From a virus (lineage: Duplodnaviria > Heunggongvirae > Uroviricota > Caudoviricetes), in IMG/VR virus record IMGVR_UViG_3300012665_001805: DNA of 64,000 nt; one strand, 5' to 3'. This document shows, piece by piece, positions 33,528 to 64,000 of this stretch. The stretch's first letter is position 1, and each line of letters begins with the position of its first letter. Below the pieces are notes generated by a model that had not been told where the DNA came from, ran no database searches, and saw only the letters and a program-made list of their open reading frames with translations. A program made the translations under genes and the position numbers.

Positions 33528-33528
33528 A

Positions 33529-37294: not shown

Positions 37295-37316
37295 TTAAAG
37301 TACTTTATTATACATA

Positions 37317-37565
37317 TTAGTAATCTCCGTAGATGTTGTATCGCTTAGGTGGTTCCGGTTTTTTATTTTCGGTTCGTATAACATATACTTTACTATCTAA
37401 AGGAGCTAAACGGAATTCTGCTTTTTCTTGGTTTTTTTCAAACCATGCCTCTAAAACACTAGTAAGTGAATTATATACTGTTTTGGTATCATCACCAACA
37501 AGCACCCAGTTATCACCAGGTGCTTGTCTATTAGCGATTAATTCATTGTATTCTACTTGTTCCAT
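37317..37565 (-). CDS. hypothetical protein
   Basis: 82 aa. Confidence 0.3.
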   Translation of the reverse strand: MEQVEYNELIANRQAPGDNWVLVGDDTKTVYNSLTSVLEAWFEKNQEKAEFRLAPLDSKVYVIRTENKKPEPPKRYNIYGDY

Positions 37566-37566
37566 A

Positions 37567-39855: not shown

Positions 39856-39889
39856 AACTAATTTTAAATTTATAACTATAATATACGAA

Positions 39890-39899
39890 AACTTATTTG
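39890..39899 (-). promoter_or_regulatory. promoter-like motif TTCGTATATT
   Basis: 35 nt upstream of ORF 39499..39855 (upstream of groES-groEL). Confidence 0.45.
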
Positions 39900-39923
39900 A
39901 ATTTCCTAATTCTATTATACATA

Positions 39924-40658
39924 CTAGAAAGCACTTTCTTCTTTACGAACCATGTAATATTCGCTTGTAGTATCTTCTGATTTGAATTCAAGTTTCATTA
40001 GGCCTTGGTAACTTAAGTATAGGGTACCACTTTCTAGATCTTTATTTGCTTGAAATATATTTTTAAATATATCTGAATTAAATGGGATTTCGGCTTTCTC
40101 TGGTTTAATTTTACCATACATTTGGTAGGTAATCTTGTTGTTGTGGCCTTGCTCATCTCCAAATGTGAATACACACATATCATCATCGTTCAAATCTTTA
40201 TCAACAGATACTGTTAATAGACCAACTCCTGCTAAAGCGGATTTTGCTTTAACTAGATTGTCGACATTTTCTTTCTCAAGTGGAAGTACAGCATCCCATT
40301 CAGGTTCACTTACAGCACCTACTTTACCAATTAGTAAAGGATCAGCTAATGCATAAGTTAAGTTGAATGAGGCATCAGCAAATTTCATTTTGGTATAAAC
40401 CGATTTACCTTTCTCTAACTCAAACATTAATTCACCTTGAGTGATACCTAATAGGTTCAATAGTTTTTTGGTATCGAAAATAGCTAATTCACTATCCTCA
40501 ATATCAATATTGTTGTGAGTGATTTTACCTATTACCTCTTTTGAAATTGACATAAAGTCAATTGTAAGGGTTTTGTCTTTGATTTTCCACTTGACGGACT
40601 CGTTTTCGCCCAAGTAGTATTTGTTTATAACGCTTTGTAGAACTAATTTATTTACCAT
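39924..40658 (-). CDS. putative DNA polymerase sliding clamp (gp45-like)
   Basis: 244 aa acidic protein between DNA polymerase and clamp loader; weak collinearity with T4 gp45. Confidence 0.4.
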   Translation of the reverse strand: MVNKLVLQSVINKYYLGENESVKWKIKDKTLTIDFMSISKEVIGKITHNNIDIEDSELAIFDTKKLLNLLGITQGELMFELEKGKSVYTKMKFADASFNLTYALADPLLIGKVGAVSEPEWDAVLPLEKENVDNLVKAKSALAGVGLLTVSVDKDLNDDDMCVFTFGDEQGHNNKITYQMYGKIKPEKAEIPFNSDIFKNIFQANKDLESGTLYLSYQGLMKLEFKSEDTTSEYYMVRKEESAF

Positions 40659-40690
40659 ATTATAAATGTATGAAATATTTTTTAATTATC

Positions 40691-43420: not shown

Positions 43421-43435
43421 AACTTTTATTTTAAA

Positions 43436-43711
43436 TTATTTTTTACGTGTTGTAGTCTTTTTAGGGATAACTACTTCCTCTACAGTTGGTTCTTCAACTA
43501 CTACTTCTTCTACTACCTCTACAGTTGGTTCTTCAATAATTACTTCTTCTACTACCTCTACAGTTGGTTCTTCAACTACTACTTCTTCAGTAGGAAATAA
43601 AGATGCTTCTAATTCATTAAGTAAATTCATAGTTTCAGTATACTTAATATTTGGTTGGGACCAATAAGTAGCATGTTTTAAACTAGCTATAATTTCTTGT
43701 GGTGTTCTCAT
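43436..43711 (-). CDS. acidic repeat protein (EEPTVEVVEEV repeats)
   Basis: three tandem 16-aa repeats encoded by ~48-bp DNA repeats. Confidence 0.45.
   Translation of the reverse strand: MRTPQEIIASLKHATYWSQPNIKYTETMNLLNELEASLFPTEEVVVEEPTVEVVEEVIIEEPTVEVVEEVVVEEPTVEEVVIPKKTTTRKK
43455..43600. repeat. tandem direct repeat, ~48-bp unit x3
   Basis: ctacagttggttcttcaa(c/t)(t/a)a(c/t)tacttcttctactacct repeated. Confidence 0.7.
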
Positions 43712-43713
43712 AA

Positions 43714-44394
43714 TTATTTATTTAAAAATTGTGTTAGATTTGGTCTAAAGTAATTAATGTTTTTCATTACCTTTCTGTCACGCGTTCTATAGACGATATA
43801 ATATCTACCAACCTTCTCATAGTGACATGCTTCCTCTTGCTCGGAAGAACGTACTCTAACGGTTTCTTGTGCCTCTTCTTCGCTTGTACAAGCTTTGCTA
43901 AGATTGGACGCTTGTACTTCTTGATACGCGGGCCATACTTTATTCTTAAGACCATGTAGCATAGCACCGTTACCCAATGAAACATAGGTAATGTCACATA
44001 GAGCATCAAGAACTTCAACAATGTTTCCCGTTTCACAAGCGTGTTTGTATTCTTCAAGTTCTTCCAAAATAAAATTATAGACAAACATCCACTCCTTCTC
44101 ATCGGGAATGACCGGGGTATAATTATTTGGTTTCCCCATAATTGCATTAAATTCTTCAACTTCTGATACAAATGGAACATAGGCGTCTTTCATTTGGGAG
44201 ATTTCTTGATTTAATCGAGACCATTCTTTAGTTACATCATTTCCAAGTTCAATTTTAGACATCATAGAAAGATCTACTACTTGACTTGTTAATAAATTAA
44301 TTAACTCTGTTTGTTTTTGTTCTAGGGTCATAGGGATTGCTTTTTTAGCTAGGAATGGAAGTATTTTATTTTTATATGCTTTAAAAGTTCTCAT
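43714..44394 (-). CDS. MazG-like nucleoside triphosphate pyrophosphohydrolase (all-alpha NTP-PPase)
   Basis: EELEEYKHA ... EVLDALCDI E-x2-E ... D metal-binding pattern. Confidence 0.5.
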   Translation of the reverse strand: MRTFKAYKNKILPFLAKKAIPMTLEQKQTELINLLTSQVVDLSMMSKIELGNDVTKEWSRLNQEISQMKDAYVPFVSEVEEFNAIMGKPNNYTPVIPDEKEWMFVYNFILEELEEYKHACETGNIVEVLDALCDITYVSLGNGAMLHGLKNKVWPAYQEVQASNLSKACTSEEEAQETVRVRSSEQEEACHYEKVGRYYIVYRTRDRKVMKNINYFRPNLTQFLNK

Positions 44395-45089
44395 ATCTGA
44401 TGTCCTCCATTATTAATTTTTAATGAATCAAAGAATTCTTTACGTGCTTGATTATTATTTTCCATAAACACACCTGATGCTTTAGTTGTAACCATTGAAG
44501 CACCTTGGTGTTTAACACCTCTACAAGATACACAATTGTGGGTTGCTACTACTGTAACAATTACACCTCTGTTTTTCTCACAAATTTTATCTACTGCTTG
44601 GTGAATAGCTGCTGTTAATTGTTCTTGGATAGCACCTCTACGACCAAAATGTTCTACAATTCGGTTCAATTTAGATAATCCAATTACTCGACCTTCATCT
44701 CCAACGATATAACCAATATGAACTACTCCTCCAATTGTTTGGTGGTGGTGAGAACACATTGAAGTTAATGGGATGTTTCTCTCAATTACGATACCATTAT
44801 ATCCGTCTGAAGGAAATGAAGTAATATCTGACATTGCTGTATATCTACCTGAAAATAAATCGAATACATAAGCTTTAGCTACACGTCTAGGTGTATTATC
44901 GGAGTTTGGATCGTTTTCCCAATCAACACCTAATGCTGTAAGGAATTCACCATACGCTTTTTCAGCTTTATCAACCATTTCCCATTTTTGTTCTTCGGTA
45001 AGGGGGAACCCAGGTGCAACTCCATTCGCGAAACCTGTTTTAACACACTCTAAATCAGTGTGGTTTTTTCTACGTTTGTTTTCTGACAT
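44391..45089 (-). CDS. folE: GTP cyclohydrolase I (FolE)
   Basis: SMCSHHHQ (cf. SMCEHHL), VIGLSKLNRIVE, HQAV...RGV motifs. Confidence 0.9.
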   Translation of the reverse strand: MSENKRRKNHTDLECVKTGFANGVAPGFPLTEEQKWEMVDKAEKAYGEFLTALGVDWENDPNSDNTPRRVAKAYVFDLFSGRYTAMSDITSFPSDGYNGIVIERNIPLTSMCSHHHQTIGGVVHIGYIVGDEGRVIGLSKLNRIVEHFGRRGAIQEQLTAAIHQAVDKICEKNRGVIVTVVATHNCVSCRGVKHQGASMVTTKASGVFMENNNQARKEFFDSLKINNGGHQI

Positions 45090-45345
45090 ATAACTTAATT
45101 AATTTATGTATTTAATGTATGAAGGATATTTGGGGTATCCAAGTTAAAATGAGGGGAGCGAATCAAAATCAATAATCTAGTCCGGGTTCAAAGAGATTTA
45201 AATTTATTGAAATGCGCGAGGATTGATGTTTTGAGTTTTTGAATTTTGATTGGGCGTACCTTATCATCATCACTTATCCGCTATGTGGCTCATAGTTGAA
45301 TTGTAAGAACATCGAAAATCAATTTCTCATCACTCCCTACTCAAA

Positions 45346-45774
45346 TTAAATTTGTGTTGTTGCGTTATGAACGTCCAACTCAGCTTGAATTTCTTCAATT
45401 CTTGCTTCTAATGTTTGCACCATCGTATCAAGTTGGGCAATATTAATTTCTACTTCTTTTACAGATACTACTGAGCTGTATCGTGCTTCAGATTTTCCTT
45501 CTTCCGTTGGAATTTTTCTTAATTCCTTGATACGGTTTTTTAACTCAGCCATACGGAAAATCTTATCGTATACCGGAGCGTTTGCTAGATGGATTTTAGT
45601 TTTTAACTCTGTTAACTCTAAAGTTAACTCAACTGCTTTATCCAATGCTGCTTGCACCGAATAACGTCTAATATTCCCTTCTTCTTGGGAATTAAATTTT
45701 TGTGCAATTTGGTATTGCTTTTTTAGTTCAATAACTAATTTGTTTTTTTGCTTTAATGCTTGAGATACATTCAT
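45346..45774 (-). CDS. coiled-coil hypothetical protein
   Basis: 142 aa heptad-rich. Confidence 0.3.
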   Translation of the reverse strand: MNVSQALKQKNKLVIELKKQYQIAQKFNSQEEGNIRRYSVQAALDKAVELTLELTELKTKIHLANAPVYDKIFRMAELKNRIKELRKIPTEEGKSEARYSSVVSVKEVEINIAQLDTMVQTLEARIEEIQAELDVHNATTQI

Positions 45775-45822
45775 GACTTTTATTTTTGTTATAATATACT
45801 AAATTTATTTACATTATCCAAG

Positions 45823-46317
45823 TTAGAGTGCGTAAATATAATCTAAATTACGCTCTTTTTTATTGTTATCCATCCCATAACCTACTACCCATTCATCTTG
45901 AATTATGAAACCATAATGTAAAGGATAATCAGGTATTGGAGAGATATCTCTAGTTAATAAAGTAACTACTTCTATTGTCTTAGGGTTGAAACTAGATAAA
46001 TGATTTACAATAGAATCTAAAGTAGTTCCAGAATCATAAAAATCATCTACTACATATACCGTTTTTCCTTCAATATCTGCTTCAATATCTTTTGTAATGT
46101 GAACTACACCTTGATCTTGACCATTATATGATTTAGCTCTCATAAAATCAAATTCAACATCTGTTGACATGTTTCTTACTAAATCACTAAAGAACATAAC
46201 TCCACCATTTAATACACAAATCATTACAACATCATCATTTTCAGTGTGTTTAAAATCAATGGTGTGAGCCATTTCTGTTACTTTATCTTGGATTTGTTTA
46301 GATGTAAATAAAATCAT
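45823..46317 (-). CDS. hypoxanthine/guanine phosphoribosyltransferase-like PRTase
   Basis: PRPP motif VYVVDDFYDSGTTL; C-terminal WVVGYGMD...RNLDYIY (cf. Hpt FVVGYGLDYAERYRNLPYI). Confidence 0.8.
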   Translation of the reverse strand: MILFTSKQIQDKVTEMAHTIDFKHTENDDVVMICVLNGGVMFFSDLVRNMSTDVEFDFMRAKSYNGQDQGVVHITKDIEADIEGKTVYVVDDFYDSGTTLDSIVNHLSSFNPKTIEVVTLLTRDISPIPDYPLHYGFIIQDEWVVGYGMDNNKKERNLDYIYAL

Positions 46318-47099
46318 TATACTCCTCTTTTTGTATCAAATGCAATAATATGATCTCTACCTGTCATATTGTATCCTTTTTCAGCACACATATCAAATAC
46401 AAGTGGATACATTTTAATTAATTCCTCTCTAGTATCTCCTGCTGGCATGATATAGGTTTTATCTTTAGGGATCTCTAGAAATTGTCTAATATCTTCAATT
46501 TCATTTAGATTTTCCTCTGTACCATCCCATACTGGTTTAAAGTGGTAATCTGTGTGAAAGTCGATCATCGCAGCCATTGCACTCAAGTTCATTCTCAACT
46601 TGTTGTGTTGGTTGACCATCTTTTGATCCGTGATTGCACCCGATGGTGTAGGAGTACCCACAACGGGTACACTATTACTAAACTTAGGACTAAGAGATAT
46701 AAGCCCAATAGGATAGTCAGTGTCAAGAAAATGCGACCCTTCAGTTTCAATAGTGATAAGAATACCTCTTTCATGAGCAAAATGTGTCAATTCGTTAACC
46801 AATTTTGGATGCATTGTAGGTGAACCTCCAGTTAACATCATTTCTTTGATGTGTGGATTTTCATCATAAATTTTGATGATATCATTAAAGGTAAACGTAC
46901 CTTTTTCTGGGTGGATACTTGTGTACCAAGAATCACACCATCCGCCTTCACCAAAGAAGCAACGGTGAGTACAACCTGTTGTGCGAACTGCAATCGTTGG
47001 ACGTCCAAAACGAGATCCCTCACTTTGAACGCAACGATATAGTTCTATAATAGGTAAAACTTTGTTATAATCTTCTATTCTTCCTAAAGTAGATTCCAT
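46317..47099 (-). CDS. queE: 7-carboxy-7-deazaguanine synthase (QueE, radical SAM)
   Basis: PIIELYRCVQSEGSRFGRPTIAVRTTGCTHRC...WCDS aligns with B. subtilis QueE N-terminus; unusual Cx3Cx7C spacing. Confidence 0.7.
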   Translation of the reverse strand: MESTLGRIEDYNKVLPIIELYRCVQSEGSRFGRPTIAVRTTGCTHRCFFGEGGWCDSWYTSIHPEKGTFTFNDIIKIYDENPHIKEMMLTGGSPTMHPKLVNELTHFAHERGILITIETEGSHFLDTDYPIGLISLSPKFSNSVPVVGTPTPSGAITDQKMVNQHNKLRMNLSAMAAMIDFHTDYHFKPVWDGTEENLNEIEDIRQFLEIPKDKTYIMPAGDTREELIKMYPLVFDMCAEKGYNMTGRDHIIAFDTKRGV

Positions 47100-47332
47100 T
47101 TTTCTTTTACTTGTGCTTCTGTTAAAACTCCGATTGACTTGTCTGCTTCTTGTCCGTCTTTCAAGAAAACTAACATTGGTACGCTTCGTACGCTATATTG
47201 AGCAGATAATGTTGGATTTTCATCCACGTTGATGAAACGTACAGGCATTGAATTACTTACGCGTTCCATAATAGGTTTGAAATTTCTGCATGGTCCACAC
47301 CATGGGGCACTAAAATAAAGAATTTCTTTCAT
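47084..47332 (-). CDS. thioredoxin
   Basis: WCGPC active site, 82 aa. Confidence 0.85.
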   Translation of the reverse strand: MKEILYFSAPWCGPCRNFKPIMERVSNSMPVRFINVDENPTLSAQYSVRSVPMLVFLKDGQEADKSIGVLTEAQVKEKWNLL

Positions 47333-47389
47333 TTTGTTAAAATATATGTAAATTTAATATCACCAAATGTAGTGGTGGAAATATAATAA

Positions 47390-47866
47390 TTATCCTTCAT
47401 AAATACTAGAGTTATTGTCGTTTTCGAAACATTCTACTTTGATTACTCGGCAACGTCCCGCGTCTGTTTTAGATAGTACTTCATTAAAATGATCAAATAC
47501 TAACTTAGCACATGATTCTGCGCCCATTTTGTCCATTACTCGAAGTGCACATAAACCTTCCATTGCTGCTGATTCGAAAAAGTCTAAGTATGGATCATCC
47601 TTCTCGATCAACAATGTGTGATCCCACATATAGTTCATCCAAGATTTCAAACCATTACCTTTAGGTGCATCTTTGAACCCACCGTAATCAACGATCCAGT
47701 TCATGTCATCTAATTGATTTTCCTCTAGTGGTTCGTTTGAAGCAAACCATACTTTGAATTTCAAAGCATAACCATGTAACAATTCACAATGTGAGTGAGA
47801 TGCTCTCCATTGTCTAAGTGCTACTGAATAATTTTCAAATAATTTTGTACTAATATATCTACCCAT
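47390..47866 (-). CDS. queD: 6-carboxy-5,6,7,8-tetrahydropterin synthase (QueD)
   Basis: SHSHCELLHGY (cf. E. coli HKCGRLHGH), WDHTLL (cf. LDHHYL). Confidence 0.7.
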   Translation of the reverse strand: MGRYISTKLFENYSVALRQWRASHSHCELLHGYALKFKVWFASNEPLEENQLDDMNWIVDYGGFKDAPKGNGLKSWMNYMWDHTLLIEKDDPYLDFFESAAMEGLCALRVMDKMGAESCAKLVFDHFNEVLSKTDAGRCRVIKVECFENDNNSSIYEG

Positions 47867-47867
47867 T

Positions 47868-48128
47868 TTAATTTATTTTATCGTAAGTTAATTCAAAGAT
47901 ATCAGGTTTACACGGATAAAATTCTCCTTTAACACCTTTAATAACATAATCGTTCCAAGAAAGTTCCATATCTCCTTCTAAAGTTCTTATAAAGTGGTAT
48001 AATGCTTCACCATCAGCTGAAGGGGTTACTATTAGGTTATTACCTAACATTTCATATACTTTTTCAATGTTATCAGATACGAATTGGATCGCTTCAATTT
48101 CAACTGGTTTTTTTCTGTATCTACCCAT
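47868..48128 (-). CDS. hypothetical protein
   Basis: 86 aa. Confidence 0.3.
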   Translation of the reverse strand: MGRYRKKPVEIEAIQFVSDNIEKVYEMLGNNLIVTPSADGEALYHFIRTLEGDMELSWNDYVIKGVKGEFYPCKPDIFELTYDKIN

Positions 48129-52466: not shown

Positions 52467-52834
52467 TTATTGTCGTAATTATATTTAAAGCTTCCTATAT
52501 ATTGTTTATTCCATTCATTTGGGTTAATTAAAGATAAAAAAACTTTATCATCATTCCCACAGTAAAGGTGATAAATTTCACCAATTACCGGTTCGAAACT
52601 AAATTTTGATTGATAAACCAAATCGTTCCAATTATATTCATCAATTAGTTTTTGATATTCTGCTTTTAATTCATCAAATTTTGATTGAAATTGTTTATTA
52701 ACTTTGTTAACTCTAATTTGTTTCCAAGCATCAATATTATCAACAATAATTGATGGAGCACCTACATTTGATCCATAAGGTAATATGTTGGGGTTATCAG
52801 CAACATTATCTGGTTTTTTATCAGTCATACTCAA
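52439..52834 (-). CDS. hypothetical protein
   Basis: 131 aa. Confidence 0.3.
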   Translation of the reverse strand: MSMTDKKPDNVADNPNILPYGSNVGAPSIIVDNIDAWKQIRVNKVNKQFQSKFDELKAEYQKLIDEYNWNDLVYQSKFSFEPVIGEIYHLYCGNDDKVFLSLINPNEWNKQYIGSFKYNYDNKWIKTEWNY

Positions 52835-53931
52835 TTGGATAGTGGTGCTTTAATATGTGGGTGTGATTCGTAATTGTTCATTGTAAAAAAGTCGGGTCTA
52901 AACTTTTCTATTTTTTCATCAAATGGAATAGGACCAACTAATTCTTCATCCATTAAGTAATGATATTCATCTAAACACCAAAGTTCAGGTAATTTCATTG
53001 GCTCTCTTGTGATTTGTTCTTTAGCTTGTTCAATATGATTTGAATATAAATGAACATCACCTAAATTTCCAATTAATTCATCAGGTATCATATTGACTTC
53101 TTTTGCTAAGATTGTAAGTAATAATCCATAAGAAGCAATGTTGAATGGTAAACCTAAGAATGTATCTACACTTCGTTGGTTCCACATTAGAGAGATTGCT
53201 CGTTTAGGAGTTGACTCTTTCCATATTTCCTCTAAAAAATAATTTTGTTTCAATTTAGTATACTCATCAGTATTTTTTTTAACCCAATTTATTCGTTCTT
53301 CCCAAGTCAATTCTCTTGTATAAACTTGAAATCCATAATGACAAGGTGGGAGAGTCATTTGGTCTAACTCACCTACATTCCAAGCATTGACCATCAATCG
53401 TCTTGAGTCTGGGTTGGTTTTAAGGTCGTTGATTATGTTTTGGATTTGGTCTATGCCGGCCAATCCTTCAAATTCTCTTTCTGAACTATTCCAATCTCTC
53501 CATTGCTTACCATAAATTGGACCTAAATCACCAAACTCTTTTTCATGCCACTTATCTAAACAAATTGCCTTAGCTAACTCCTCCTGTGTAAGCTTTCTAG
53601 GTACCTCAAATGGTGTAGTTTTACTCATATGCTCATACCACTTTTCAAACGCTTTATAAGCATCACCATCCCAAATATGGCAATTATTTTCAACTAAATA
53701 CTTAATATTTGTATCGCCACGCAAGAACCAAATCAATTCGGTTGCAATTGTTTTAAATGGCATTTTTTTGGTTGTTAGTAAAGGAAACCCCTCAGACATC
53801 TTGTGTCTAATTTGTCTCCCAAATACTGAGATAGTACCTGTTCCAGTTCTATCTTGTTTTTGGACTCCATTGTCTAGGATATCCTTTAGAAGTCTAAGGT
53901 AATCATGTTCTATATTGTTTACAAGTCCCAT
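52831..53931 (-). CDS. thyA: thymidylate synthase ThyA homolog with two ~45-aa insertions
   Basis: DRTGTGT, ELIWFLRGDTN, PPCHYGFQVY (catalytic Cys), DTFLGLPFNIASY (Asn retained), GDVHLYSNH; 366 aa vs 264. Confidence 0.85.
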   Translation of the reverse strand: MGLVNNIEHDYLRLLKDILDNGVQKQDRTGTGTISVFGRQIRHKMSEGFPLLTTKKMPFKTIATELIWFLRGDTNIKYLVENNCHIWDGDAYKAFEKWYEHMSKTTPFEVPRKLTQEELAKAICLDKWHEKEFGDLGPIYGKQWRDWNSSEREFEGLAGIDQIQNIINDLKTNPDSRRLMVNAWNVGELDQMTLPPCHYGFQVYTRELTWEERINWVKKNTDEYTKLKQNYFLEEIWKESTPKRAISLMWNQRSVDTFLGLPFNIASYGLLLTILAKEVNMIPDELIGNLGDVHLYSNHIEQAKEQITREPMKLPELWCLDEYHYLMDEELVGPIPFDEKIEKFRPDFFTMNNYESHPHIKAPLSN

Positions 53932-55335: not shown

Positions 55336-55362
55336 AACCTTTATTTTCCGTAAATATAAAAA

Positions 55363-55379
55363 GGCTCCCTTAGGGAGCC
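55363..55379. terminator. bidirectional hairpin GGCTCCC-TTA-GGGAGCC with T-runs on both sides
   Basis: plus-strand T7 after stem and minus-sense T5. Confidence 0.5.
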
Positions 55380-55407
55380 TAGTTTTTTTGGAAAAGTTTG
55401 TTTTTTA

Positions 55408-55740: not shown

Positions 55741-55779
55741 AATTTTATTTGTTAATTAATATTTGATGACATATATAAA

Positions 55780-55796
55780 GGCCCCTTTAAGGGGCC
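55780..55796. terminator. bidirectional hairpin GGCCCCTT-TAA-GGGGCC flanked by T-runs
   Basis: plus-strand T8 follows. Confidence 0.5.
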
Positions 55797-55819
55797 TAGT
55801 TTTTTTTATAAGAAATTAA

Positions 55820-56410
55820 TTACTTAATATCAGTTGATTCAATCAATGTGTAAGTAAATGATTTACCATGAATAGCTGCTGCTTTACGAGCGATAACCAT
55901 GAATGCTTCAAAATCAGATGCTTTTTTAAATACTTGGCATCCTTCAGACCAGTTTTCTACATAAGTAGAATCGGCACCTGCTTTATGAATGTTAATTCCA
56001 AATACACCTTCAGCAATTTTAGTTTCATCGTAAGTCATATCACGATTTGCATCACGATAAACTTTAACTGGCTTAGCTTGTTTTAAAGCTTCATATTTTC
56101 CTTGGTGTAAACCTAGGGTATGTGAACCTCTATATTGACCTTCAACTAAACGAGCAACACCTGCTGCGTTATGATATTCTTTAACCCCTTTTTTACCTGG
56201 GTCTGTTGTACAAGGCCATTGAGCGAATTTCTTTTCACCACCTTCTTTGTAAGAAACAGTTATTGTATCATCAAATACATTTGTTACTGTTTGTCCTGTT
56301 GCAGAGTTTCTAACTCCTACGATATTAACATCGAAGTCTTTTTCGCCATCAAACCAAGCGTATCCTTTAGCTTTTACAGCTGTTTCAATTTGTTCTCTTG
56401 TATATGCCAT
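55820..56410 (-). CDS. hypothetical protein (possible cell-wall peptidase; weak)
   Basis: 196 aa; IHKAGAD loosely resembles M15 SxHxxGxAxD. Confidence 0.25.
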   Translation of the reverse strand: MAYTREQIETAVKAKGYAWFDGEKDFDVNIVGVRNSATGQTVTNVFDDTITVSYKEGGEKKFAQWPCTTDPGKKGVKEYHNAAGVARLVEGQYRGSHTLGLHQGKYEALKQAKPVKVYRDANRDMTYDETKIAEGVFGINIHKAGADSTYVENWSEGCQVFKKASDFEAFMVIARKAAAIHGKSFTYTLIESTDIK

Positions 56411-56415
56411 TTTAT

Positions 56416-57174
56416 TTATATGTTATCATATGGAATTCCTTCTCCATCATCTATAGTAATATTAGGATACATTTTAGTTAAAATATCCATAATGTTATTA
56501 ATTGTTGTTAAACGTTGTTGTTCTATTGTTAATCCTGTTTGTTTTGTGTATTCAATTGCAGGGTTTAAAGTACCTTTTTGAAATTCTAAAATACGTGTAA
56601 TTATTTTTCTAAATGTATCGGGTTCATAGGATTGTCCTTTTTCTACAGTAATATCTAAATTACTTTTAATATCCGCTTCATATTGAGCTTTTGTTTCTAA
56701 AAACTTAAGTTCTTGTTCTTTATATTTAGAGATTAATGTTTTTAAATCGGTTGGTTTATCCGCAATATATTGTGGGGTAAATGATCCATTTTTAGATAAG
56801 TAATCATATCCTCTAAATGAAAATTTTTCTGGCCATTCTAATTTATCTAAATTTACTGTGGTTATATAGGAAGCATGTGGGTCTAAAGCTAAAGAATTAA
56901 GTATTAATCTAAGACCTACGGTATAATTTTTACCATATTTTTCTTTAAATAAATAAATTAATTTCTGGTTTGCTTCAAATAATTTAGATAAATCAACTAA
57001 TATCTGTCCATTACCATCAGTTGTATATTTAACATCTCCTATTACATCGGATGTAAAATTAAGGGTTCCTTCAGAAAATGCAGCAAAACTAACAGATATA
57101 ATAACTGGTAGGTTTTCGATTGGATCAGATGAATTATTATCTATATATTCAAAAAGGATTGTGTTATTATCCAT
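56416..57174 (-). CDS. hypothetical protein
   Basis: 252 aa. Confidence 0.3.
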   Translation of the reverse strand: MDNNTILFEYIDNNSSDPIENLPVIISVSFAAFSEGTLNFTSDVIGDVKYTTDGNGQILVDLSKLFEANQKLIYLFKEKYGKNYTVGLRLILNSLALDPHASYITTVNLDKLEWPEKFSFRGYDYLSKNGSFTPQYIADKPTDLKTLISKYKEQELKFLETKAQYEADIKSNLDITVEKGQSYEPDTFRKIITRILEFQKGTLNPAIEYTKQTGLTIEQQRLTTINNIMDILTKMYPNITIDDGEGIPYDNI

Positions 57175-57178
57175 AGTT

Positions 57179-57790
57179 TTATTTTACGTATTCGTAATAT
57201 TTTTTAGTTTTTGAATTGCGATCTTCTAAACCGTGAGTACCTCCGTTGATACGTTTTGTCAATTCTAGAATAGCAGCATCATTGATTCCTTTATCACAAA
57301 TAGCCCACAATTTATTTCTTTCAAAGAAGAACATTGCTGATTCAAAGGCGTATTTTGTAGCTACTAGATCAGGATTAGTAACAACTTCATCTGTACCTAA
57401 ATACTTTGCAAATGCTTCGTAATTAGCTTTACCAGTTAATTGTAATGCACCACGACCTCTATATTTCCAACCATCACCCGAAGCTTCGTTTCCGTTACCC
57501 ATACGATCTGCATAAACACGATTAGCAATTTTTTCAGGTTGACGAGCATAAGATTCTTCTAGGGTTCCCGGGAAATATTTTCCAAAGATACCTTGCAAAC
57601 CTTGTGCTGAATAGTTTAGGTTTTCACTAAATGCTTTAAAACCACCTGTTTCATGTGATGTTTGTGCAAAGAAGTGTGCTGCACGTACAGGTGTTAATTT
57701 CAATAACGCCATTCCGGCTTTCATTGTACCTGGTCCAAAAGCGCCGTCCGCGGCTACTCCTGCTCTTTCTTGTAAACTTTTTAAACTCAT
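57179..57790 (-). CDS. endolysin, glycoside hydrolase family 19 (chitinase-like lysozyme)
   Basis: FFAQTSHETGG and YRGRGALQLTG..NY GH19 signatures. Confidence 0.85.
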   Translation of the reverse strand: MSLKSLQERAGVAADGAFGPGTMKAGMALLKLTPVRAAHFFAQTSHETGGFKAFSENLNYSAQGLQGIFGKYFPGTLEESYARQPEKIANRVYADRMGNGNEASGDGWKYRGRGALQLTGKANYEAFAKYLGTDEVVTNPDLVATKYAFESAMFFFERNKLWAICDKGINDAAILELTKRINGGTHGLEDRNSKTKKYYEYVK

Positions 57791-58102
57791 TTATTCCTCC
57801 TCGTTTTTATCATTTTTTTTATTAATCCATTTATCAACAGAAGCAATTCCAAATGAACCTAAAACAACTACCATAAAACCATCAAAGATAAATTTGTTGA
57901 TTAATAATGGTTTACCATAAGCTCCAGTAATTAGATCTACTGCCAAAGCAATCACTAGCATAAAGAATGCAATAAAACCAACTACTGATTTTTCGTTGAT
58001 TGTGTTGTTGTCATCAAACAACTGTCTAAAAAATTTTCTCATAATGTTTCTTTTATTATAAATATTAATGATTCGAATAAAATTCGATTTGTTTGGTTGC
58101 AT
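57791..58102 (-). CDS. holin candidate (small membrane protein adjacent to endolysin)
   Basis: 103 aa, two TM helices, charged C-terminus. Confidence 0.4.
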   Translation of the reverse strand: MQPNKSNFIRIINIYNKRNIMRKFFRQLFDDNNTINEKSVVGFIAFFMLVIALAVDLITGAYGKPLLINKFIFDGFMVVVLGSFGIASVDKWINKKNDKNEEE

Positions 58103-58514
58103 GGTTTACCAGCCAAGGTTCTATATTAGGAATTTTTAATAACATTTCTAATTCATAAGTGTAACATACTACCTCTTCATAACTTTCAGGCATTAGTAAC
58201 TTATTTTTTAAAATATATAAATGTAGAGATTCATGTACTAAAGTAGCAGCTAAATCATTTATATTTCCCGCTATCATTTCTTTTTGAGAAATTAATATTG
58301 TAGTTCCGTTTTCAGTAGTTGAAAATGGTAAAAGTGAATAACTGATATGTTCACAGTTTTCAATTAGTAAGGTATATTTTTCTGGGTCGTATTGTTTTAC
58401 AACTTCTATTGCTTGTTCAATTTTATTTTTCCATCCATCACCTACATCATCTATTTTGATTTGGGTGAATGAAAAAAATGGTATAAAACTAAGGCATACG
58501 ATTAATAGCTTCAT
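58065..58514 (-). CDS. secreted protein with HExxH (putative metallopeptidase)
   Basis: signal peptide; VHESLHLY. Confidence 0.35.
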   Translation of the reverse strand: MKLLIVCLSFIPFFSFTQIKIDDVGDGWKNKIEQAIEVVKQYDPEKYTLLIENCEHISYSLLPFSTTENGTTILISQKEMIAGNINDLAATLVHESLHLYILKNKLLMPESYEEVVCYTYELEMLLKIPNIEPWLVNHATKQIEFYSNH

Positions 58515-58938
58515 TTATGGCTTTTTTTAGAGAGTTAGATACTGTCATTTTTTCAAATGGAATAGTACCTTCTTTTACTTCAATCATTACTGCTGTAATT
58601 TCTGTTTCAGATTCACCTATACCTTCATATTTGGCTCCTTTGTAATGTAAGCGAACTCCAACTTGAGTAATTACATTTGATTTTTCTATACCTGCTATTC
58701 GTAATGTGTTTTTTGGAATACCAAAATAGTATATTTCAATTTTAATAGGTTCACCAGTTTCATCTAAACAATATTTTTCAGATAATATATCTTCAGCAAT
58801 TTGTTTAATACCAAAGCGAATATCTCGTGTACCTAGTTCTCTAAGTTTTGCGGTTACAAACACAGTATCTACATAAACACATTGTTGTGCAGCTAATGTA
58901 AGTGGGAATAAAAATAACGCAAGTAATAGTTTTTTCAT
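58489..58938 (-). CDS. secreted/lipo-protein
   Basis: signal peptide MKKLLLALFLFPLTLAAQQC. Confidence 0.35.
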   Translation of the reverse strand: MKKLLLALFLFPLTLAAQQCVYVDTVFVTAKLRELGTRDIRFGIKQIAEDILSEKYCLDETGEPIKIEIYYFGIPKNTLRIAGIEKSNVITQVGVRLHYKGAKYEGIGESETEITAVMIEVKEGTIPFEKMTVSNSLKKAINEAINRMP

Positions 58939-58941
58939 AAT

Positions 58942-59748
58942 TTAAAATTTAAGTGTTGATCCAATTAATATATTGTGCATAAGACCCCATTTTGGAGTAG
59001 TGTTCATATTACCTCTATAGGTTAAATTTAATTTAAAACGTTTTGATAATTTAATTCCTACACAATTTCCAACTACTGCATTGAAAGTAGATGATGAACT
59101 GAAGAAGTTCATTCCTATATCATAATAAGGAGAACACATTGTAATATAAGCTTCAGGGCGTATGTCAATTCTATTTGAAAGTTTAAATTCCTTTTGTGTC
59201 AACAATACTAAATATGGTACAGCTACGAAATAAGCATCTTTATCTGTACTTTTTCCATTAGCAACAATCCCAACGCCAATCTGAGCACCTAAGGTAAACT
59301 CTTTAATTTTTTTAGGTTCCCATACTCTAGTAACAGACATTCCAGTATTAAGTGCCATAGCCATTCTACCAAAATTTATATGATAGTACCATTTTTCTCG
59401 TCTATAATAAAAGGAATATGATTGTTGTGATAAATCAAAAGTTAATACTGCATTAGCACCAAAACCTTTACCAAAAGTAATACTACTCCAGTTTAAACTA
59501 GTACCTGGTCTAAATGTAAATGTTTCATAAGTAGGACTTCCTACTAAAGCAAAATCTGCTGAGTTTAGGATTTGGTTTGGTTTAATAATAGATCCACCTC
59601 CAAATGATCTAGATTGGGCCCCCATAATACTGTTTTGGGTTGTACCAAAATCTTCTTGAGCAGTAGGTGGTGATGGGGCAGGTGGTGGGGGAGCAGTTTG
59701 TCCAAATAACATGATTGGGAAAAACAAAATTAAAAATAAATTTTTCAT
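58942..59748 (-). CDS. secreted protein, Pro-rich N-terminus, beta-rich (outer-membrane-like)
   Basis: signal peptide, PPPPAPSPP, alternating hydrophobic pattern, C-terminal F. Confidence 0.35.
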   Translation of the reverse strand: MKNLFLILFFPIMLFGQTAPPPPAPSPPTAQEDFGTTQNSIMGAQSRSFGGGSIIKPNQILNSADFALVGSPTYETFTFRPGTSLNWSSITFGKGFGANAVLTFDLSQQSYSFYYRREKWYYHINFGRMAMALNTGMSVTRVWEPKKIKEFTLGAQIGVGIVANGKSTDKDAYFVAVPYLVLLTQKEFKLSNRIDIRPEAYITMCSPYYDIGMNFFSSSSTFNAVVGNCVGIKLSKRFKLNLTYRGNMNTTPKWGLMHNILIGSTLKF

Positions 59749-59749
59749 A

Positions 59750-60787
59750 TCAATAAGTTACTTGCCCCTTATACCCAGGAGCGATTAAATAATAGTTTCC
59801 TGTTGTGGTACCACTTACAGGTGTGTTAATTGTAATTGAACTTACACCAGGTATAGTTGAACGTAAGTCGGTTGTACCTGTTGTTAAAGAGGTATACTGT
59901 GTTGGAGTAAATATTCTAGATGAGTAAGGGTATGTTGCTAATCCATTTTGTTTTAAATTAATAAAAATAGCATCAGATACACTTATTCTTCCATCATTGT
60001 TTGTATCATATTGTATCCAATGTATGCTTTTTCTTATTGTATTACCTAATACGTTATCTGTTACACCTCTAAGATCTGTTATAGTATGGGATGTTATTGG
60101 GGTAGGAGCATCTATTTGAATGTACCATTCAGTAGCGGGGTTAGTTGATTGAGAAAATGAATAATATCCTAATGAATTTGTATAAACAGTTTGGTGTAGG
60201 ACCCATGGTGTAAAAGTTACTATATAATTAAACTCGATGACATAGGGTAATGATTGATTGTTTGGTAAGTCATTCCATTTACCCCCACCAACAAATTGAA
60301 TATAATCCTCATTACCTGCATTATTTGGTTCACCTGGGTTCCATGAACTATAGGAGTAAGTCTCTCCAGTTACCCAACGCCAAACACCTTCAGTAACTTC
60401 ATCTGTTAAACCAATCCATCCACTTGGCCATAAGCTATATATAAAATTATTTTCGGCAGCAGAAGTTACAGTTACTAAATAACCCCCCATGTTTGAACAA
60501 GCAGTTCTTGCATCTGTCCAAAAAGCACTTCCCGTTGAGCGATAATATGAGTGTCCGTTATAATTTTGTTGGGATGTAAATCCGGTTAATGTTGGAGTAG
60601 TACGTTTATACAATTTAACAGGTACATTTACAGCACCTGTACCATCAGCATTTCGAATATATCCAGAATATGTAAATGTTTGAGCAAACAAGTTACATGA
60701 AGATAATATAAAAAATATTATTGCCCAACCATTAATCTTGTTCCACATGTTACTGTATAATTTAGGGTTGAGTTGCCTAAAGACCAA
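59750..60787 (-). CDS. secreted C-type lectin domain protein with dockerin/EF-hand-like Ca-binding motif
   Basis: signal/anchor; WTDARTACSNMGGYLVTVTSAAENNF...WIGLTD...GVWRWVTG...WNPGEPNN...WNDLPN = canonical CTLD; DTNNDGRISVSDAIFI dockerin-like. Confidence 0.6.
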   Translation of the reverse strand: MVFRQLNPKLYSNMWNKINGWAIIFFILSSCNLFAQTFTYSGYIRNADGTGAVNVPVKLYKRTTPTLTGFTSQQNYNGHSYYRSTGSAFWTDARTACSNMGGYLVTVTSAAENNFIYSLWPSGWIGLTDEVTEGVWRWVTGETYSYSSWNPGEPNNAGNEDYIQFVGGGKWNDLPNNQSLPYVIEFNYIVTFTPWVLHQTVYTNSLGYYSFSQSTNPATEWYIQIDAPTPITSHTITDLRGVTDNVLGNTIRKSIHWIQYDTNNDGRISVSDAIFINLKQNGLATYPYSSRIFTPTQYTSLTTGTTDLRSTIPGVSSITINTPVSGTTTGNYYLIAPGYKGQVTY

Positions 60788-62268
60788 GCACCACCCGCGT
60801 TTATGTTAAATTTAAATTTCTTAGTTATCCCTATATTAACTCCAATACTAGGAATCATTACATATGGGGATTGCATTACTATATCATTATAATAACTTAC
60901 GTAAGGTGAATAAACCATCAAATCCGTAAATTTGATATCTAATCGTTTACCTACTTTTAAATCATACATACCTCCTGCTATTACAGCAGTACCTAAAAAC
61001 TGTGTTCTAAAAACAGCACCATATGATACTGTTGCCATATAAATGACTTTAAGATTTTTTACTTTTTGGAATGAAAACATTTGACCACCTGAAATGGTTC
61101 CATAAAGAGAACCAGTCCCTTCAAATCCAACAGTTGCTGTTGCTGAAAGTATAGTGACTGCTTTGGGTTTCATCCAGGCATAGAATCCTGTAATGTTTGG
61201 GCCTTTTAATGCGGAAGTATAGTCACCTAATACACCCCAACTGCGTTTACCATCCCAGCGTAAAGAAGTATAACCACCAGTTACTTTTAAACCAGTAGTT
61301 ACCTCAGAGTCTTTGAAATTAAATCCAACAAAGTCACTTGATGCTACAACAGATGGTTTTCCGCCTTCTTTACTTTTTGAGCTACCGGATGTTGTTGTAG
61401 ATCCTCTAATAGTATTTGTACTACCTCCAGTTATATTTGTTTTGCCGCTTTCTTCTTGCGGGGTCTGTACTTCTTGCGTTTCGGTTTGACTACCTTCTCC
61501 GCCACTACCGTTTCCTGAAGTACCACCTTGGGTGCTGCTTCCTTCTGTGCTGCTGCTTGTTCCAGTGCTAGTACTTCCTTCTGTAGTTGGTTCTGTAGTT
61601 GTGCTACTAGAAGAGCCGCTTGTGGGTTCGGTGCTTGAACTACTTGTTCCTGTTTCTGTTCCAGTGCTTGACGTAGTTCCTCCATTTTCTCCGCTTCCGG
61701 TACCTGTGGTTGTTTGACCTCCTGTTGTTGTTTGTGGTGACGTTTGTACGTTCGTAGGTGTACTGCTTGTTCCGTTAGATTCCACCCCGCTATTGCCGCT
61801 AGTGCTATTATTACTATTAGTGCTATTATTGTTCCCATTTTTTTCGTTTTTATTATTTGTATTATTATTTGTACTTCCTGCTACAGTTGTAGTTGCTCCT
61901 CCTAAAATATTTGTTGAACCAGCTAAATCAGCTATTGCTGAAAGTGAGTTTAGTATACCAATTGTGTTTAATACGGTTGATTGGCTTACATTCACTGCAG
62001 TTGATACACCAACTATTTGAGCACAAGGTGAAATATTTTGGTATTGAGCTAATACTTGGTTGGCCCAGTTTTCAAATGTTCCATTTTGGAAATCAATTCC
62101 TGTAAATGAAGATGTCTCTCCATAATATGAAACTGCTATACTTCCATTTACGGGGACACTTAATGATTTCAATACCCCTGTGCAAGGATCTGTATAACTA
62201 TAAATATATGATTGAGCACTCAATGTGAGTCCCAAAAAACATGTCAATATAAGTACTACTAGTTTCAA
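60718..62268 (-). CDS. secreted protein with long Ser/Thr/Gly-rich linker and C-terminal beta-rich domain
   Basis: signal peptide MKLVVLILTCFLGLTLSAQS; ~170-aa S/T/G/N low-complexity region; alternating beta pattern at C-terminus. Confidence 0.5.
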   Translation of the reverse strand: MKLVVLILTCFLGLTLSAQSYIYSYTDPCTGVLKSLSVPVNGSIAVSYYGETSSFTGIDFQNGTFENWANQVLAQYQNISPCAQIVGVSTAVNVSQSTVLNTIGILNSLSAIADLAGSTNILGGATTTVAGSTNNNTNNKNEKNGNNNSTNSNNSTSGNSGVESNGTSSTPTNVQTSPQTTTGGQTTTGTGSGENGGTTSSTGTETGTSSSSTEPTSGSSSSTTTEPTTEGSTSTGTSSSTEGSSTQGGTSGNGSGGEGSQTETQEVQTPQEESGKTNITGGSTNTIRGSTTTSGSSKSKEGGKPSVVASSDFVGFNFKDSEVTTGLKVTGGYTSLRWDGKRSWGVLGDYTSALKGPNITGFYAWMKPKAVTILSATATVGFEGTGSLYGTISGGQMFSFQKVKNLKVIYMATVSYGAVFRTQFLGTAVIAGGMYDLKVGKRLDIKFTDLMVYSPYVSYYNDIVMQSPYVMIPSIGVNIGITKKFKFNINAGGAWSLGNSTLNYTVTCGTRLMVGQ

Positions 62269-63002
62269 CTTTTGAATACACCTTTAGAGATTAGTCTTGA
62301 GACAACCCTAGAAGATGCAGTTTCTAATGCTTTTTTAGTAGTAATACCTATAGTGGATTGGTTAAATTTAACTTCTTCAGCCATATCATCTAAAATAGAT
62401 GACATTTTAACTGTATTAGCTTCACCTAAACCTGATCCAACGATAATTTGTCCTGTTTCGGCGTCTACAAATTTAATTTGTAATCCTAAACGTGTGGTCT
62501 GTGTTACCGTGGTTTTACCGTCTAATTTAACTATTTCGTCCTCTGAAACTGAAAAATCATAAATTTCAATATACACGAAATATTTTGCTAAGACAACGTT
62601 TCCTTTAACTTCTATTTTATTTGATGAAATTCCCTTATCAGATGCTTTATCTTGGGCAATCATCCTTTGTTTAATATCTTCTTTTTCTTCAGTAAATGTA
62701 AATCTTCCAGTATATTCAAGATATTCAATTACTATATTCGTTACACCTAAACCAACTCGTTTGTCTTTTAGCTCAGGATACATTTCGTACAATTCAGCGT
62801 TTATACCAATTTTAAGTAATTGAATTGGCACTTGAATTGTATCGGTATAATTGGATACTACTTCCAATGATTGTTTTTTCTCAAAGTCTGCTTGATATTG
62901 TTCTGTTTTAACAGTCCCAATACCTCCTTGAGGAGGTTGAGCTTGGGCCGTTTTACAAGAAAACAGCCCTAACATCAATAATATGCATAAAAATCTTACC
63001 AT
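62265..63002 (-). CDS. lipoprotein
   Basis: signal peptide with LFSC lipobox. Confidence 0.4.
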   Translation of the reverse strand: MVRFLCILLMLGLFSCKTAQAQPPQGGIGTVKTEQYQADFEKKQSLEVVSNYTDTIQVPIQLLKIGINAELYEMYPELKDKRVGLGVTNIVIEYLEYTGRFTFTEEKEDIKQRMIAQDKASDKGISSNKIEVKGNVVLAKYFVYIEIYDFSVSEDEIVKLDGKTTVTQTTRLGLQIKFVDAETGQIIVGSGLGEANTVKMSSILDDMAEEVKFNQSTIGITTKKALETASSRVVSRLISKGVFKS

Positions 63003-63316
63003 GATTCTTCTTGTGGTTTTTGAACCGGTGCAGCTGGTTGGGATGGTTTTTCAATTACTCGTTCGCGAATTACTGTTCCTCCTCCATTTTCAACTTTTTG
63101 TTTGTTTTCTTGGTTTTGTTGAACATTAACAATTACAGGAGCTGCAGAAGCTGCAGGTTGTTCTGTTTTTGTTTCTTCTTTAGGTTCTTCAGCATGACCT
63201 CCAAATAAAATTGTTGATAACCATACACCACCACCTGTAATAACTGTAGTAAGTGTTCCGATAATTGTTTTTTTCATTCCTGACCAAGTACCGTCGTTGT
63301 GTGTTTCTTCTGACAT
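62996..63316 (-). CDS. membrane protein with Pro/Gln-rich tail
   Basis: 106 aa, TM helices. Confidence 0.3.
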   Translation of the reverse strand: MSEETHNDGTWSGMKKTIIGTLTTVITGGGVWLSTILFGGHAEEPKEETKTEQPAASAAPVIVNVQQNQENKQKVENGGGTVIRERVIEKPSQPAAPVQKPQEESW

Positions 63317-63319
63317 AGA

Positions 63320-64000
63320 TTATTGTTTAATTAATTTATTATAAATAGTAGTTTCGTTATCTAAAGATAAATTTACTACATACATTCCCGGAGCTAATTT
63401 ACCTAAATCTTTTACATATGTAAATTGTCCTGATGGTAGTTCACCTTCTAGGATTGTAATTATTTTTCTACCTTGTAAATCATAAATTGCTAAATGTGCT
63501 TTTGTATCAATATTTACATTAAAAGTAATAGCAACATCATCTAATACTGGATTGGGGTTAACTTCAATTGTATTTGGAGCAATCAATTTACCATTTACTG
63601 ATTTTAATACTTGTAATATTCCGTTTGTTGGAGTAATTTCAAGATCTTTTGCGTAAGTATCTCCTGCAAATTTATCAGTTGTATAAAGTGGACTTTCAGC
63701 CCAATCGTTTTGTGGTTGTTTAGCTAAAAATTGTAATGTAATTACCTCACTACCATCTTGTAATAAATTGTTATTTGTTGGATCATATCCACCCCATTTA
63801 ATTTCGTCGTTGTTTGGGTTGATATATGTTAACCACTTCATTACGTTCGAAGTAGAATATGCACTTTTAAATTCAAGTACTGTTGGATCATATTTTAATC
63901 CAAATTGTAATGAATTTAATGTTTTTCCATTTGTAAATACTTTTACAGGAATATTAACTAAATTTCCAGCATCTACAGCTAAACGAGGTACGTTTACTTC
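63320..64000 (-). CDS. T9SS (Por) C-terminal sorting domain protein, 5'-partial (continues beyond window)
   Basis: C-terminal ~80 aa NPNPVLDDVAITFNV...AIYDLQGRKIITIL...GMYVVNLSLDNETTIYNKLIKQ fits T9SS CTD; reading frame stays open upstream of the annotated Met to the window edge. Confidence 0.6.
   Translation of the reverse strand, partial: EVNVPRLAVDAGNLVNIPVKVFTNGKTLNSLQFGLKYDPTVLEFKSAYSTSNVMKWLTYINPNNDEIKWGGYDPTNNNLLQDGSEVITLQFLAKQPQNDWAESPLYTTDKFAGDTYAKDLEITPTNGILQVLKSVNGKLIAPNTIEVNPNPVLDDVAITFNVNIDTKAHLAIYDLQGRKIITILEGELPSGQFTYVKDLGKLAPGMYVVNLSLDNETTIYNKLIKQ

Follow-up and report, generated by a model that had tools for sequence, protein, structure and literature searches.

Does the 6-kb block at 58065-64000 of IMG/VR virus record IMGVR_UViG_3300012665_001805, in which every gene product is exported or lies in a membrane, belong to the phage, and what could it do there? 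The stretch analysed (called the window below) covers 64 000 nucleotides of a low-GC (~32%), phage-like genome of the Caudoviricetes, whose long open reading frames (ORFs) lie essentially all on the minus strand. An initial annotation, made from the letters alone, had offered two explanations for the block: phage-encoded proteins remodelling the host surface, or a junction of phage and host DNA. We are almost certain that the block is a conserved module within a phage genome. It is read here, tentatively, as an envelope-targeted module with two sub-assemblies, carried by myophages of Flavobacterium-type Bacteroidota that resemble the cultured phage immuto. Judging from gene order, it sits between replication/nucleotide-metabolism genes and holin-like/endolysin genes. 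Remodelling of the host surface or envelope, tied to lysis, would be its most reasonable function.

Organization and transcription of the block

The block consists of eight consecutive genes, read from 64000 towards 57000. They are packed or overlapping all along from 63320 to a downstream gene for a GH19-type endolysin. In the order of transcription, with lengths in amino acids (aa), they are:

63320-64000, minus strand: 3′ part (226 codons and the stop) of a cohesin/type IX secretion system (T9SS) protein; frame open to base 64000
62996-63316, minus strand: 106-aa membrane protein, homologue of immuto gp16 (sequence)
62265-63002, minus strand: 245-aa divergent CsgG-family protein with a signal peptide and the lipobox LFSC (profile and fold homology)
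60718-62268, minus strand: 516-aa exported protein with a signal peptide, homologue of immuto gp18 (alignment A2, composition)
59750-60748, minus strand: 332-aa secreted lectin with a signal peptide, a beta-sandwich interrupted by a C-type lectin domain (CTLD) and a dockerin-like C-terminal module (Lectin_C)
58942-59748, minus strand: 268-aa accessory exported protein (signal peptide, Pro-rich stretch, beta-rich domain ending ...STLKF)
58489-58938, minus strand: 149-aa secreted truncated CsgG-like paralogue, homologue of immuto gp19 (hhalign)
58065-58514, minus strand: 149-aa secreted protein with a conserved HESxH...EE motif (family consensus)

The run of signal-peptide ORFs described initially was recovered with all its members, on the minus strand, except that the product of 62996-63316 has a signal anchor instead. 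Cleavable signal peptides ending in (A/G/T/S)Q start the products of 58065-58514, 58489-58938, 58942-59748, 59750-60748, 60718-62268 and 62265-63002. Such an ending, with Gln after a small residue, has been described for Bacteroidota proteins that are cleaved by signal peptidase I. By one simple heuristic, these Q-type signal peptides are confined to the 6-kb block within the 64-kb window, and they are kept across the homologous families of block proteins.

A holin-like gene (57791-58042) starts 22 nucleotides past the block and directly abuts the GH19 gene. By the direction of transcription the block lies upstream of these two genes, and not downstream of a lysis cassette as first described. 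Beyond the block and the lysis genes, terminator-like sites are first met at 55362-55380 and 55779-55797, where two GC-rich hairpins, both strong, have T-runs on both strands. On the coding strand no strong terminator-like hairpin was found from the block to 55797-55779, which is compatible with co-transcription of the block with the holin-like and GH19 genes; such co-transcription is probable. A sigma-70 scan was uninformative, with 41 sites (48.5 expected) and a consensus that differs from Bacteroidota promoters. Upstream of the first module gene the neighbours differ across loci, and no single convincing common promoter motif was found there.

The block in related phage genomes

The gene cut by the window end encodes 633 aa in full in the close relatives L069 to L074. 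Locus L069, one of the contigs that encode an identical CsgG-like protein, is 96% identical to the window in nucleotides over 59733-64000. Upstream of its 633-aa gene lie genes for the large and small subunits of ribonucleotide reductase (RNR), DnaB, a 5′-3′ exonuclease, a RecA-like protein and gp32. The same arrangement was found in immuto (vB_FspM_immuto, Immutovirus immuto, MW353175), a cultured lytic Flavobacterium phage, which is a myovirus of 160 kb with Flavobacterium sp. LMO8 as host. Its homologous, syntenic module (immuto26A_13 to _19) has gp13 to gp19 in a row: lectin, dockerin-like protein, cohesin with sorting domain, membrane protein, CsgG-like protein, 516-aa type protein and truncated paralogue. 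These genes directly follow gp32, recombinase, exonuclease, DnaB, RNR and two nuclease genes, so that the upstream replication and RNR genes are those of the window's close relative. Identity to the window reaches 55% for the lectin and 68% for gp17 (amino acids). The immuto module differs in that the lectin gene comes first, the dockerin-like and cohesin/sorting-domain genes are separate, gp17 has no lipobox cysteine and a secreted EndoG-type nuclease is present. The GenBank record of immuto annotates only 'lectin C-type' and 'cohesin' within the module, and no published analysis of the module was found in the literature searched.

One scan of viral contigs found the CsgG-like gene in 67 IMG/VR loci; neighbours were counted in these and in immuto (68 loci). 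The cohesin/sorting-domain gene is a neighbour in 61 loci, the 106-aa gene in 60, the 516-aa gene in 62 and the lectin gene in 56. The truncated CsgG paralogue follows with ~55 loci, the HExxH gene with 41, the GH19 gene with 39 (at most ~5 kb from the module) and the holin-like gene with 35. The usual order is 633-aa, 106-aa, (holin-like), CsgG-like, 516-aa, lectin, (EndoG-type nuclease), truncated CsgG paralogue and HExxH gene. The EndoG-type nuclease, which has a signal peptide (Endonuclease_NS, E = 1e-25), lies within the module at L001 15649-16227 (immuto gp12) and in 26 other loci, and is missing from the window.

When window positions 56000-64000 were compared with GenBank phages by megablast, a single match was obtained (62555-62918, 78% to immuto, in the CsgG-like gene); positions 30000-48000 gave nothing in the same search. 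Among 50 697 GenBank phage records the lectin, the 633-aa protein or the CsgG-like protein was found in immuto phages only. Species-representative genomes (185 579) were scanned with back-translated peptide patterns from the narrower alignment A3, which reaches close relatives only; the CsgG-like protein was found on five contigs of metagenome-assembled genomes (MAGs) only, at least three with more module genes and four with a GH19 gene.

A boundary between a prophage and the host chromosome, with the exported proteins encoded by host genes beside an attachment site, had been suggested by the initial annotation. In its favour, T9SS sorting domains, cohesins and CsgG are typically encoded by bacterial chromosomes, the block is situated at the edge of the window, and GC climbs slightly to 0.37 at 60-63 kb. 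This last deviation is due to the S/T/G-rich linker of the 516-aa protein. Continuity of GC and codon usage had been proposed as a check: GC at third codon positions (GC3) is 0.18 in the block versus 0.21, and relative synonymous codon usage (RSCU) of the block correlates with that of the rest of the window at r = 0.954, random gene sets giving 0.967 ± 0.014. By this measure codon usage is continuous with the rest of the window. Phage replication genes flank the block in the 96%-identical relative, the block lies inside the lytic immuto genome in synteny, and close homologues were met only on viral contigs or on the MAG contigs described above. Neither an integrase nor an attachment site was seen in the extended loci. 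The flanking sequence of relatives refutes a phage-host junction, which we regard as extremely improbable.

The cohesin/T9SS protein

Two domains of the 633-aa protein lie in the window:

~63620-63997, minus strand: cohesin domain (Pfam Cohesin)
~63323-63559, minus strand: T9SS type-A C-terminal sorting domain (PF18962, TIGR04183)

The complete protein is composed, in this order, of a signal peptide, an N-domain, a beta-sandwich, a dockerin-like module, the cohesin and the sorting domain. The cohesin (PF00963) scores 31.3 bits against a cut-off of 24.1, directly before the sorting domain, and is matched in 26 of 30 family members (best E = 9.5e-14). A T9SS C-terminal domain in an ORF continuing beyond the window was part of the initial description and is borne out. 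PF18962 (Por_Secre_tail) gives 37.9 bits (cut-off 27) and TIGR04183 41.6 bits (cut-off 23), the domain ends two residues from the stop, and Por_Secre_tail is matched in 28 of 30 family members. The N-terminus lies outside the window; in L069 the protein begins MKNLLLSLLLLVVTFNLFGQ, a signal peptide, and a signal-peptide-like N-terminus occurs in 73 of the 76 members of the 633-aa family. By domain criteria, the product of 63320-64000 is a bona fide T9SS type-A cargo. Flavobacterium possesses a T9SS. The N-domain was ruled out as a second cohesin (hhalign probability 0.3%).

The lectin and the dockerin-like module

The following features were located in the lectin:

~60239-60520, minus strand: canonical CTLD (Pfam Lectin_C, PF00059)
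~59963-60082, minus strand: dockerin-like EF-hand loop DTNNDGRISVSD (sequence)

The lectin ORF is present at 59750-60787 as first described, with its start most likely at ATG 60748, which gives 332 aa and agrees with the gene calls in relatives; TTG 60787 is the alternative. It had been said to carry a textbook CTLD, and Lectin_C matches with 63.4 bits (cut-off 22.6; E = 3.9e-17). A phmmer search of PDB with the lectin returned the mannose receptor, CD23 and DC-SIGN, with E down to 1.6e-24. Aligned with mannose receptor CTLDs, the window CTLD (WIGLTD...GEPNNAGNED...KWND) has the WIGL core and intact calcium site-2 ligands. Of the four canonical cysteines the first alone is retained (ACSNMGG); Tyr, Asn and Ile/Val are aligned with the rest, which rules out both conserved disulfides. 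From this alignment the CTLD is canonical, with an intact EPN/WND calcium-sugar site, and sugar binding is predicted. Given the EPN motif, the expected ligands are of mannose, GlcNAc, glucose or fucose type, bound in a calcium-dependent manner.

The dockerin-like module is shared by the two proteins. The homology between the lectin and the 633-aa protein extends over ~107 aligned residues, which include the EF-hand-like loop and the sequence after it (hhalign 99.1%, E = 7.5e-19). Each module has a single canonical calcium loop, the second one (DTNNDGRISVSD; DVNGSNNITISD). Dockerin_1 (PF00404) is a recurrent weak match, in 15 of 30 members of the 633-aa family and 24 of 45 of the lectin family (39/75; best E = 7.8e-5). 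A hidden Markov model of the module, run across all loci, retrieved 128 ORFs, all of them from the lectin family or the 633-aa/gp14 family. The module and the cohesin/sorting domain are fused in 63 of the 67 ORFs of the 633-aa family found in the loci, and in immuto they are separate as gp14 and gp15. This fusion versus split is a Rosetta-stone hint that the module and cohesin parts may interact.

The heads found at the lectin position are Lectin_C (38/45), Laminin_G_3 (12/45), PA14, pentaxin, GEVED and Ig_7. As every one of these folds binds glycans, ligand specificity would seem to be under selection. In L074 (5275-6984) a lectin-position protein with another glycan-binding head was seen on the same dockerin-like module (alignment A5).

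The CsgG-like lipoprotein and its paralogue

Pfam CsgG is matched by 21 of 35 diverse homologues of the CsgG-like protein (best E = 1.9e-17). The family profile retrieved E. coli CsgG from PDB (E = 8.6e-4), and hhalign of the family against CsgG gave 93.9% probability over 226 columns. An AlphaFold2 (AF2) model was obtained with a predicted local distance difference test (pLDDT) score of 78. Its top Foldseek match is CsgG (4uv3/4uv2, E = 2.7e-8, template modelling score ~0.5), followed in PDB by PelC, FlgT and LptE; a phage CsgG was matched in a viral structure library. The lipobox is present in 47 of 78 family members. The product of 58489-58938 aligns to the CsgG-like family over 115 columns (hhalign 97.6%, E = 3.4e-12).

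The CsgG-like protein is locally the most conserved, with 68% identity between window and immuto as compared with 62.5% for the RNR large subunit, 56% for DnaB and 38% for gp32. At E <= 1e-3 it has 5945 homologues, which fall into 240 clusters when grouped at 50% identity; the viral contigs that carry them reach ~290 kb.

Other exported and membrane proteins

After a short N-terminus, the 106-aa protein has one transmembrane helix (~residues 17-39), which is a signal anchor and is not expected to be cleaved off. A Pro/Glu/Lys/Gln-rich spacer comes next, and the C-terminal ...EESW is conserved. The gene (62996-63316) and that for the CsgG-like protein (62265-63002) overlap by 7 nucleotides. No Pfam, PHROG or PADLOC family was found for the 106-aa protein.

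Three parts were distinguished in the 516-aa protein:

~61894-62211, minus strand: conserved N-domain with two Cys (alignment)
~61372-61893, minus strand: variable linker of 174 aa, 78% S/T/G/N (composition)
~60721-61371, minus strand: conserved all-beta C-domain (alignment)

The S/T/G-rich linker of ~170 aa reported initially agrees with these figures. The protein has no family match, and its profile gave nothing meaningful in PDB. The N-domain was ruled out as a relative of the CsgG-like protein, there being no similarity. An alternative-frame ORF within the gene (61431-61838, 135 aa) is probably spurious; it covers a low-complexity region and is not called in relatives.

The gene for the 268-aa protein is an accessory insertion, missing from the 96%-identical L069 and found in three to four loci only. 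The product had no match in family searches (Pfam, NCBIfam, PHROG); from its sequence it may be an outer-membrane beta-barrel. Its similarity to the 516-aa C-domain is weak (hhalign just 24%), and a kinship was not accepted. The product of 58065-58514 is a putative small zincin-type metallopeptidase, and its sole database match is a weak PHROG of unknown function. With this exception no PHROGs or PADLOC family was found for the block proteins, and therefore no link to known defence systems.

The cohesin, the membrane-anchored partner, the HExxH protein and both proteins of CsgG fold went unnoticed in the initial annotation, as did the existence of a single conserved module linked to lysis genes.

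Lysis genes

Two genes follow the block:

57791-58042, minus strand: holin-like 83-aa protein with two transmembrane helices and a charged C-terminus (sequence; 'holin' inferred)
57179-57790, minus strand: GH19-type endolysin (Glyco_hydro_19, E = 1.2e-10; PHROG 181 endolysin, E = 7.5e-64)

The holin-like protein had no family match. In more than 30 related loci its gene lies within the module, between the 106-aa membrane-protein and CsgG-like genes. A 196-aa protein (55820-56410) without family match, conserved up to 95%, accompanies the GH19 gene in 24 of the 68 loci.

Proposed mechanism

All block products would leave the cytoplasm via the host Sec pathway. In the first sub-assembly, the cohesin protein would cross the outer membrane by the host T9SS and either stay on the surface or be released from it. 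The dockerin-like modules of the lectin and of the N-terminal half of the cohesin protein would dock on the cohesin. The infected cell or its debris would then bear an exchangeable glycan-binding head (CTLD here; LamG, PA14 or pentaxin in relatives). The benefit could be masking of surface glycan receptors (superinfection exclusion, or fewer progeny lost on debris) or cell-to-cell adhesion. The second sub-assembly would be a trans-envelope one, composed of the CsgG-family outer-membrane lipoprotein, the truncated paralogue, the membrane-anchored Pro-rich spacer protein and the 516-aa protein. The tight linkage to the holin-like gene suggests that it acts in outer-membrane permeabilization or lysis timing. 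That all this amounts to a self-contained display system, with a T9SS-anchored cohesin scaffold capturing swappable lectins in the style of a cellulosome, coupled to a CsgG-family trans-envelope complex in the lysis of Bacteroidota, for which spanin-type devices are not known, we consider doubtful.

Several observations weigh against an envelope module of two sub-assemblies. For the first sub-assembly, the docking is inferred. The dockerin-like motif that the initial annotation placed after the CTLD did not hold at the family cut-off: Dockerin_1 gives 13.8 bits for the lectin and 18.3 bits for the 633-aa protein (cut-off 22.9), one calcium loop is canonical, and the first (upstream) loop is degenerate, with only Ile and the final Asp left on reading the sequence. 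The lectin has no T9SS sorting domain, which leaves its route across the outer membrane unexplained. For the second, the window CsgG-like protein by itself had no match to Pfam CsgG (PF03783). Of the E. coli constriction loop (Tyr51, Asn55, Phe56) Tyr-Pro is kept, and Asn and Phe are not. The regions of both barrel-forming hairpins of E. coli are charged and shorter by ~6 and ~8-11 residues. Distant homologues (P0205, P0227, P0217, P0221, P0235) have the CsgG-like domain fused to a Ser/Thr kinase or a caspase (Peptidase_C14), so the domain need not be a channel. None of csgA, csgB, csgE and csgF was found among the block proteins (Pfam, NCBIfam). The AF2 model of the 516-aa protein is too poor for use (pLDDT 38.7), and the immuto module is not adjacent to a lysin gene.

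Alternative explanations

The tie to lysis could be the whole function. The 106-aa protein and the CsgG-like lipoprotein, with the paralogue and the 516-aa protein, would then disrupt the outer membrane as a spanin-like device or a pore, and the lectin and cohesin would be passengers. The genes for a membrane anchor and a lipoprotein overlap near the endolysin, which is the layout of a two-component spanin, the holin-like gene comes in between in many loci, the GH19 gene is often near, and no recognizable spanin pair was noticed beside the endolysin. The CsgG of Methylophilales phage Melnitz has been proposed as a lysis-timing pore (PMC9004378). The proteins themselves fit a spanin poorly. Outer-membrane spanins (o-Spanins) are small, fast-evolving lipoproteins. 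The lipoprotein here is globular, with 245 aa in a CsgG fold, and better conserved than any of the proteins around it; in place of a coiled-coil partner there is a Pro/Glu/Lys/Gln-rich spacer with no obvious coiled coil. The distance between the immuto module and its lysin counts here too, and the near-constant presence of the lectin and cohesin genes (56-61 of 68 loci) favours one functional unit. A lysis accessory with passengers is rather unlikely. The CsgG fold also raises curli-like (type VIII) secretion, in which an oligomeric CsgG-like channel would export an unfolded substrate, for example the 516-aa protein, into a fibre or coat by which host cells would be aggregated ('sibling capture'), an idea put forward for pelagimyophage curli clusters (PMC7029224). 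Family and fold, the lipobox of many members and the 174-aa disordered region in the product of the adjacent gene agree with it. Yet no CsgA/B-like repeats, CsgE or CsgF were found (Pfam, NCBIfam), there is no conservation of N55 and F56 in the constriction, and the hairpin regions are reduced in length. The domain is also used as a periplasmic module of kinases and caspases, and the 516-aa linker varies in length and sequence like a spacer and unlike an amyloid core. We hold curli-like secretion to be distinctly unlikely.

Finally, the lectin and cohesin proteins could decorate the virion and bind glycans for the phage particle, in adsorption or adherence. Phage particles commonly bear domains of lectin or Ig-like fold (PMC9853417), and the head domain is swapped among relatives, as often in receptor-binding proteins. 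With Sec signals on every protein and one T9SS sorting domain, though, the products would be removed from the cytoplasm, where tailed-phage particles assemble, and the genes lie in the replication/lysis region and not in the structural module. This role is very unlikely. The envelope-targeted module with two sub-assemblies is kept as the preferred, tentative reading.

Comparison with known systems

In non-cellulosomal cohesin-dockerin pairs, an EF-hand-type loop (DxNxDGxIxxxD) and flanking helices are found in dockerin order. The window shares with them an above-threshold cohesin and a partner module with such a loop and helices; it differs by a sub-threshold dockerin with one canonical loop, by its viral origin and by the place of the module on lectins instead of enzymes, and the pairing is a predicted one. 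With the metazoan calcium-dependent C-type lectins (mannose receptor, DC-SIGN, MBP) the window CTLD has in common the WIGL core and the EPN...E...WND ligands; unlike them it has one of four cysteines, is inserted in a bacterial-type beta-sandwich and is followed by the dockerin-like module. Bordetella phage Mtd has a non-canonical C-type-lectin fold, unlike the window CTLD. T5 Llp is a receptor-masking/superinfection-exclusion protein that is exported and acts at the envelope of the infected cell; it has no homology to the block proteins and is a functional analogy only. Phage C-type-lectin folds have otherwise been discussed as hypervariable receptor-binding domains (PMC9853417), whereas the window CTLD is canonical and belongs to a secreted protein.

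Phage-encoded T9SS cargo was described once, in 'Cryophage', where it was termed a unique occurrence (PMC7468147). There too, a type-A sorting domain ends phage proteins, hijacking of the host T9SS is presumed, the cargo varies among variants and PA14 occurs (PMC7468147). The Cryophage cargos (glycoside hydrolases/PA14) each have their own sorting domain; in the window one cohesin protein has the sorting domain and the heads have the dockerin-like module. Clusters of csgG and csgF are known from pelagimyophages and phage Melnitz; speculation about what they do has ranged over pores, lysis timing and 'sibling capture' (PMC7029224, PMC9004378). The likeness lies in a CsgG-family gene of T4-like aquatic myophages, placed between replication and structural regions, with no csgA or csgB. 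Their CsgG is near proteobacterial CsgG and comes with CsgF, whereas the window protein is divergent, has no CsgF and would belong to phages of Bacteroidota hosts. Its partners also differ: a truncated paralogue, a membrane-anchored spacer protein, a cohesin/T9SS protein and a lectin. The initial annotation had called phage T9SS cargo or adhesin-like proteins unusual. The cargo is indeed phage-borne; as to rarity, precedents exist in Cryophage, in phage csgG genes and in the labelled immuto genes. The domain types are known ones, in a combination not described in the sources searched.

If the proposed mechanism is true, a virus uses the host T9SS and a cohesin-docking pair to rebuild the surface of the infected cell with swappable lectins. 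It would also give a first handle on the role of phage CsgG-like genes, an open question since the pelagimyophages, and could bear on how Bacteroidota phages breach the outer membrane. The module is abundant, as seen from the number of CsgG-like homologues, and immuto can be cultured on Flavobacterium sp. LMO8, which makes these ideas directly testable. If the model fails, what is left is a set of accessory genes of phages that is clearly bounded and widely conserved.

Other features of the window

The thymidylate synthase gene at 52831-53931 encodes 366 aa, over a Pfam model of 266 positions, which implies an insertion of ~100 residues; relatives have 332-368 aa. On the minus strand at 10985-13996, 25 tRNA genes cover most amino acids and form a GC-rich island (0.48 versus ~0.32).

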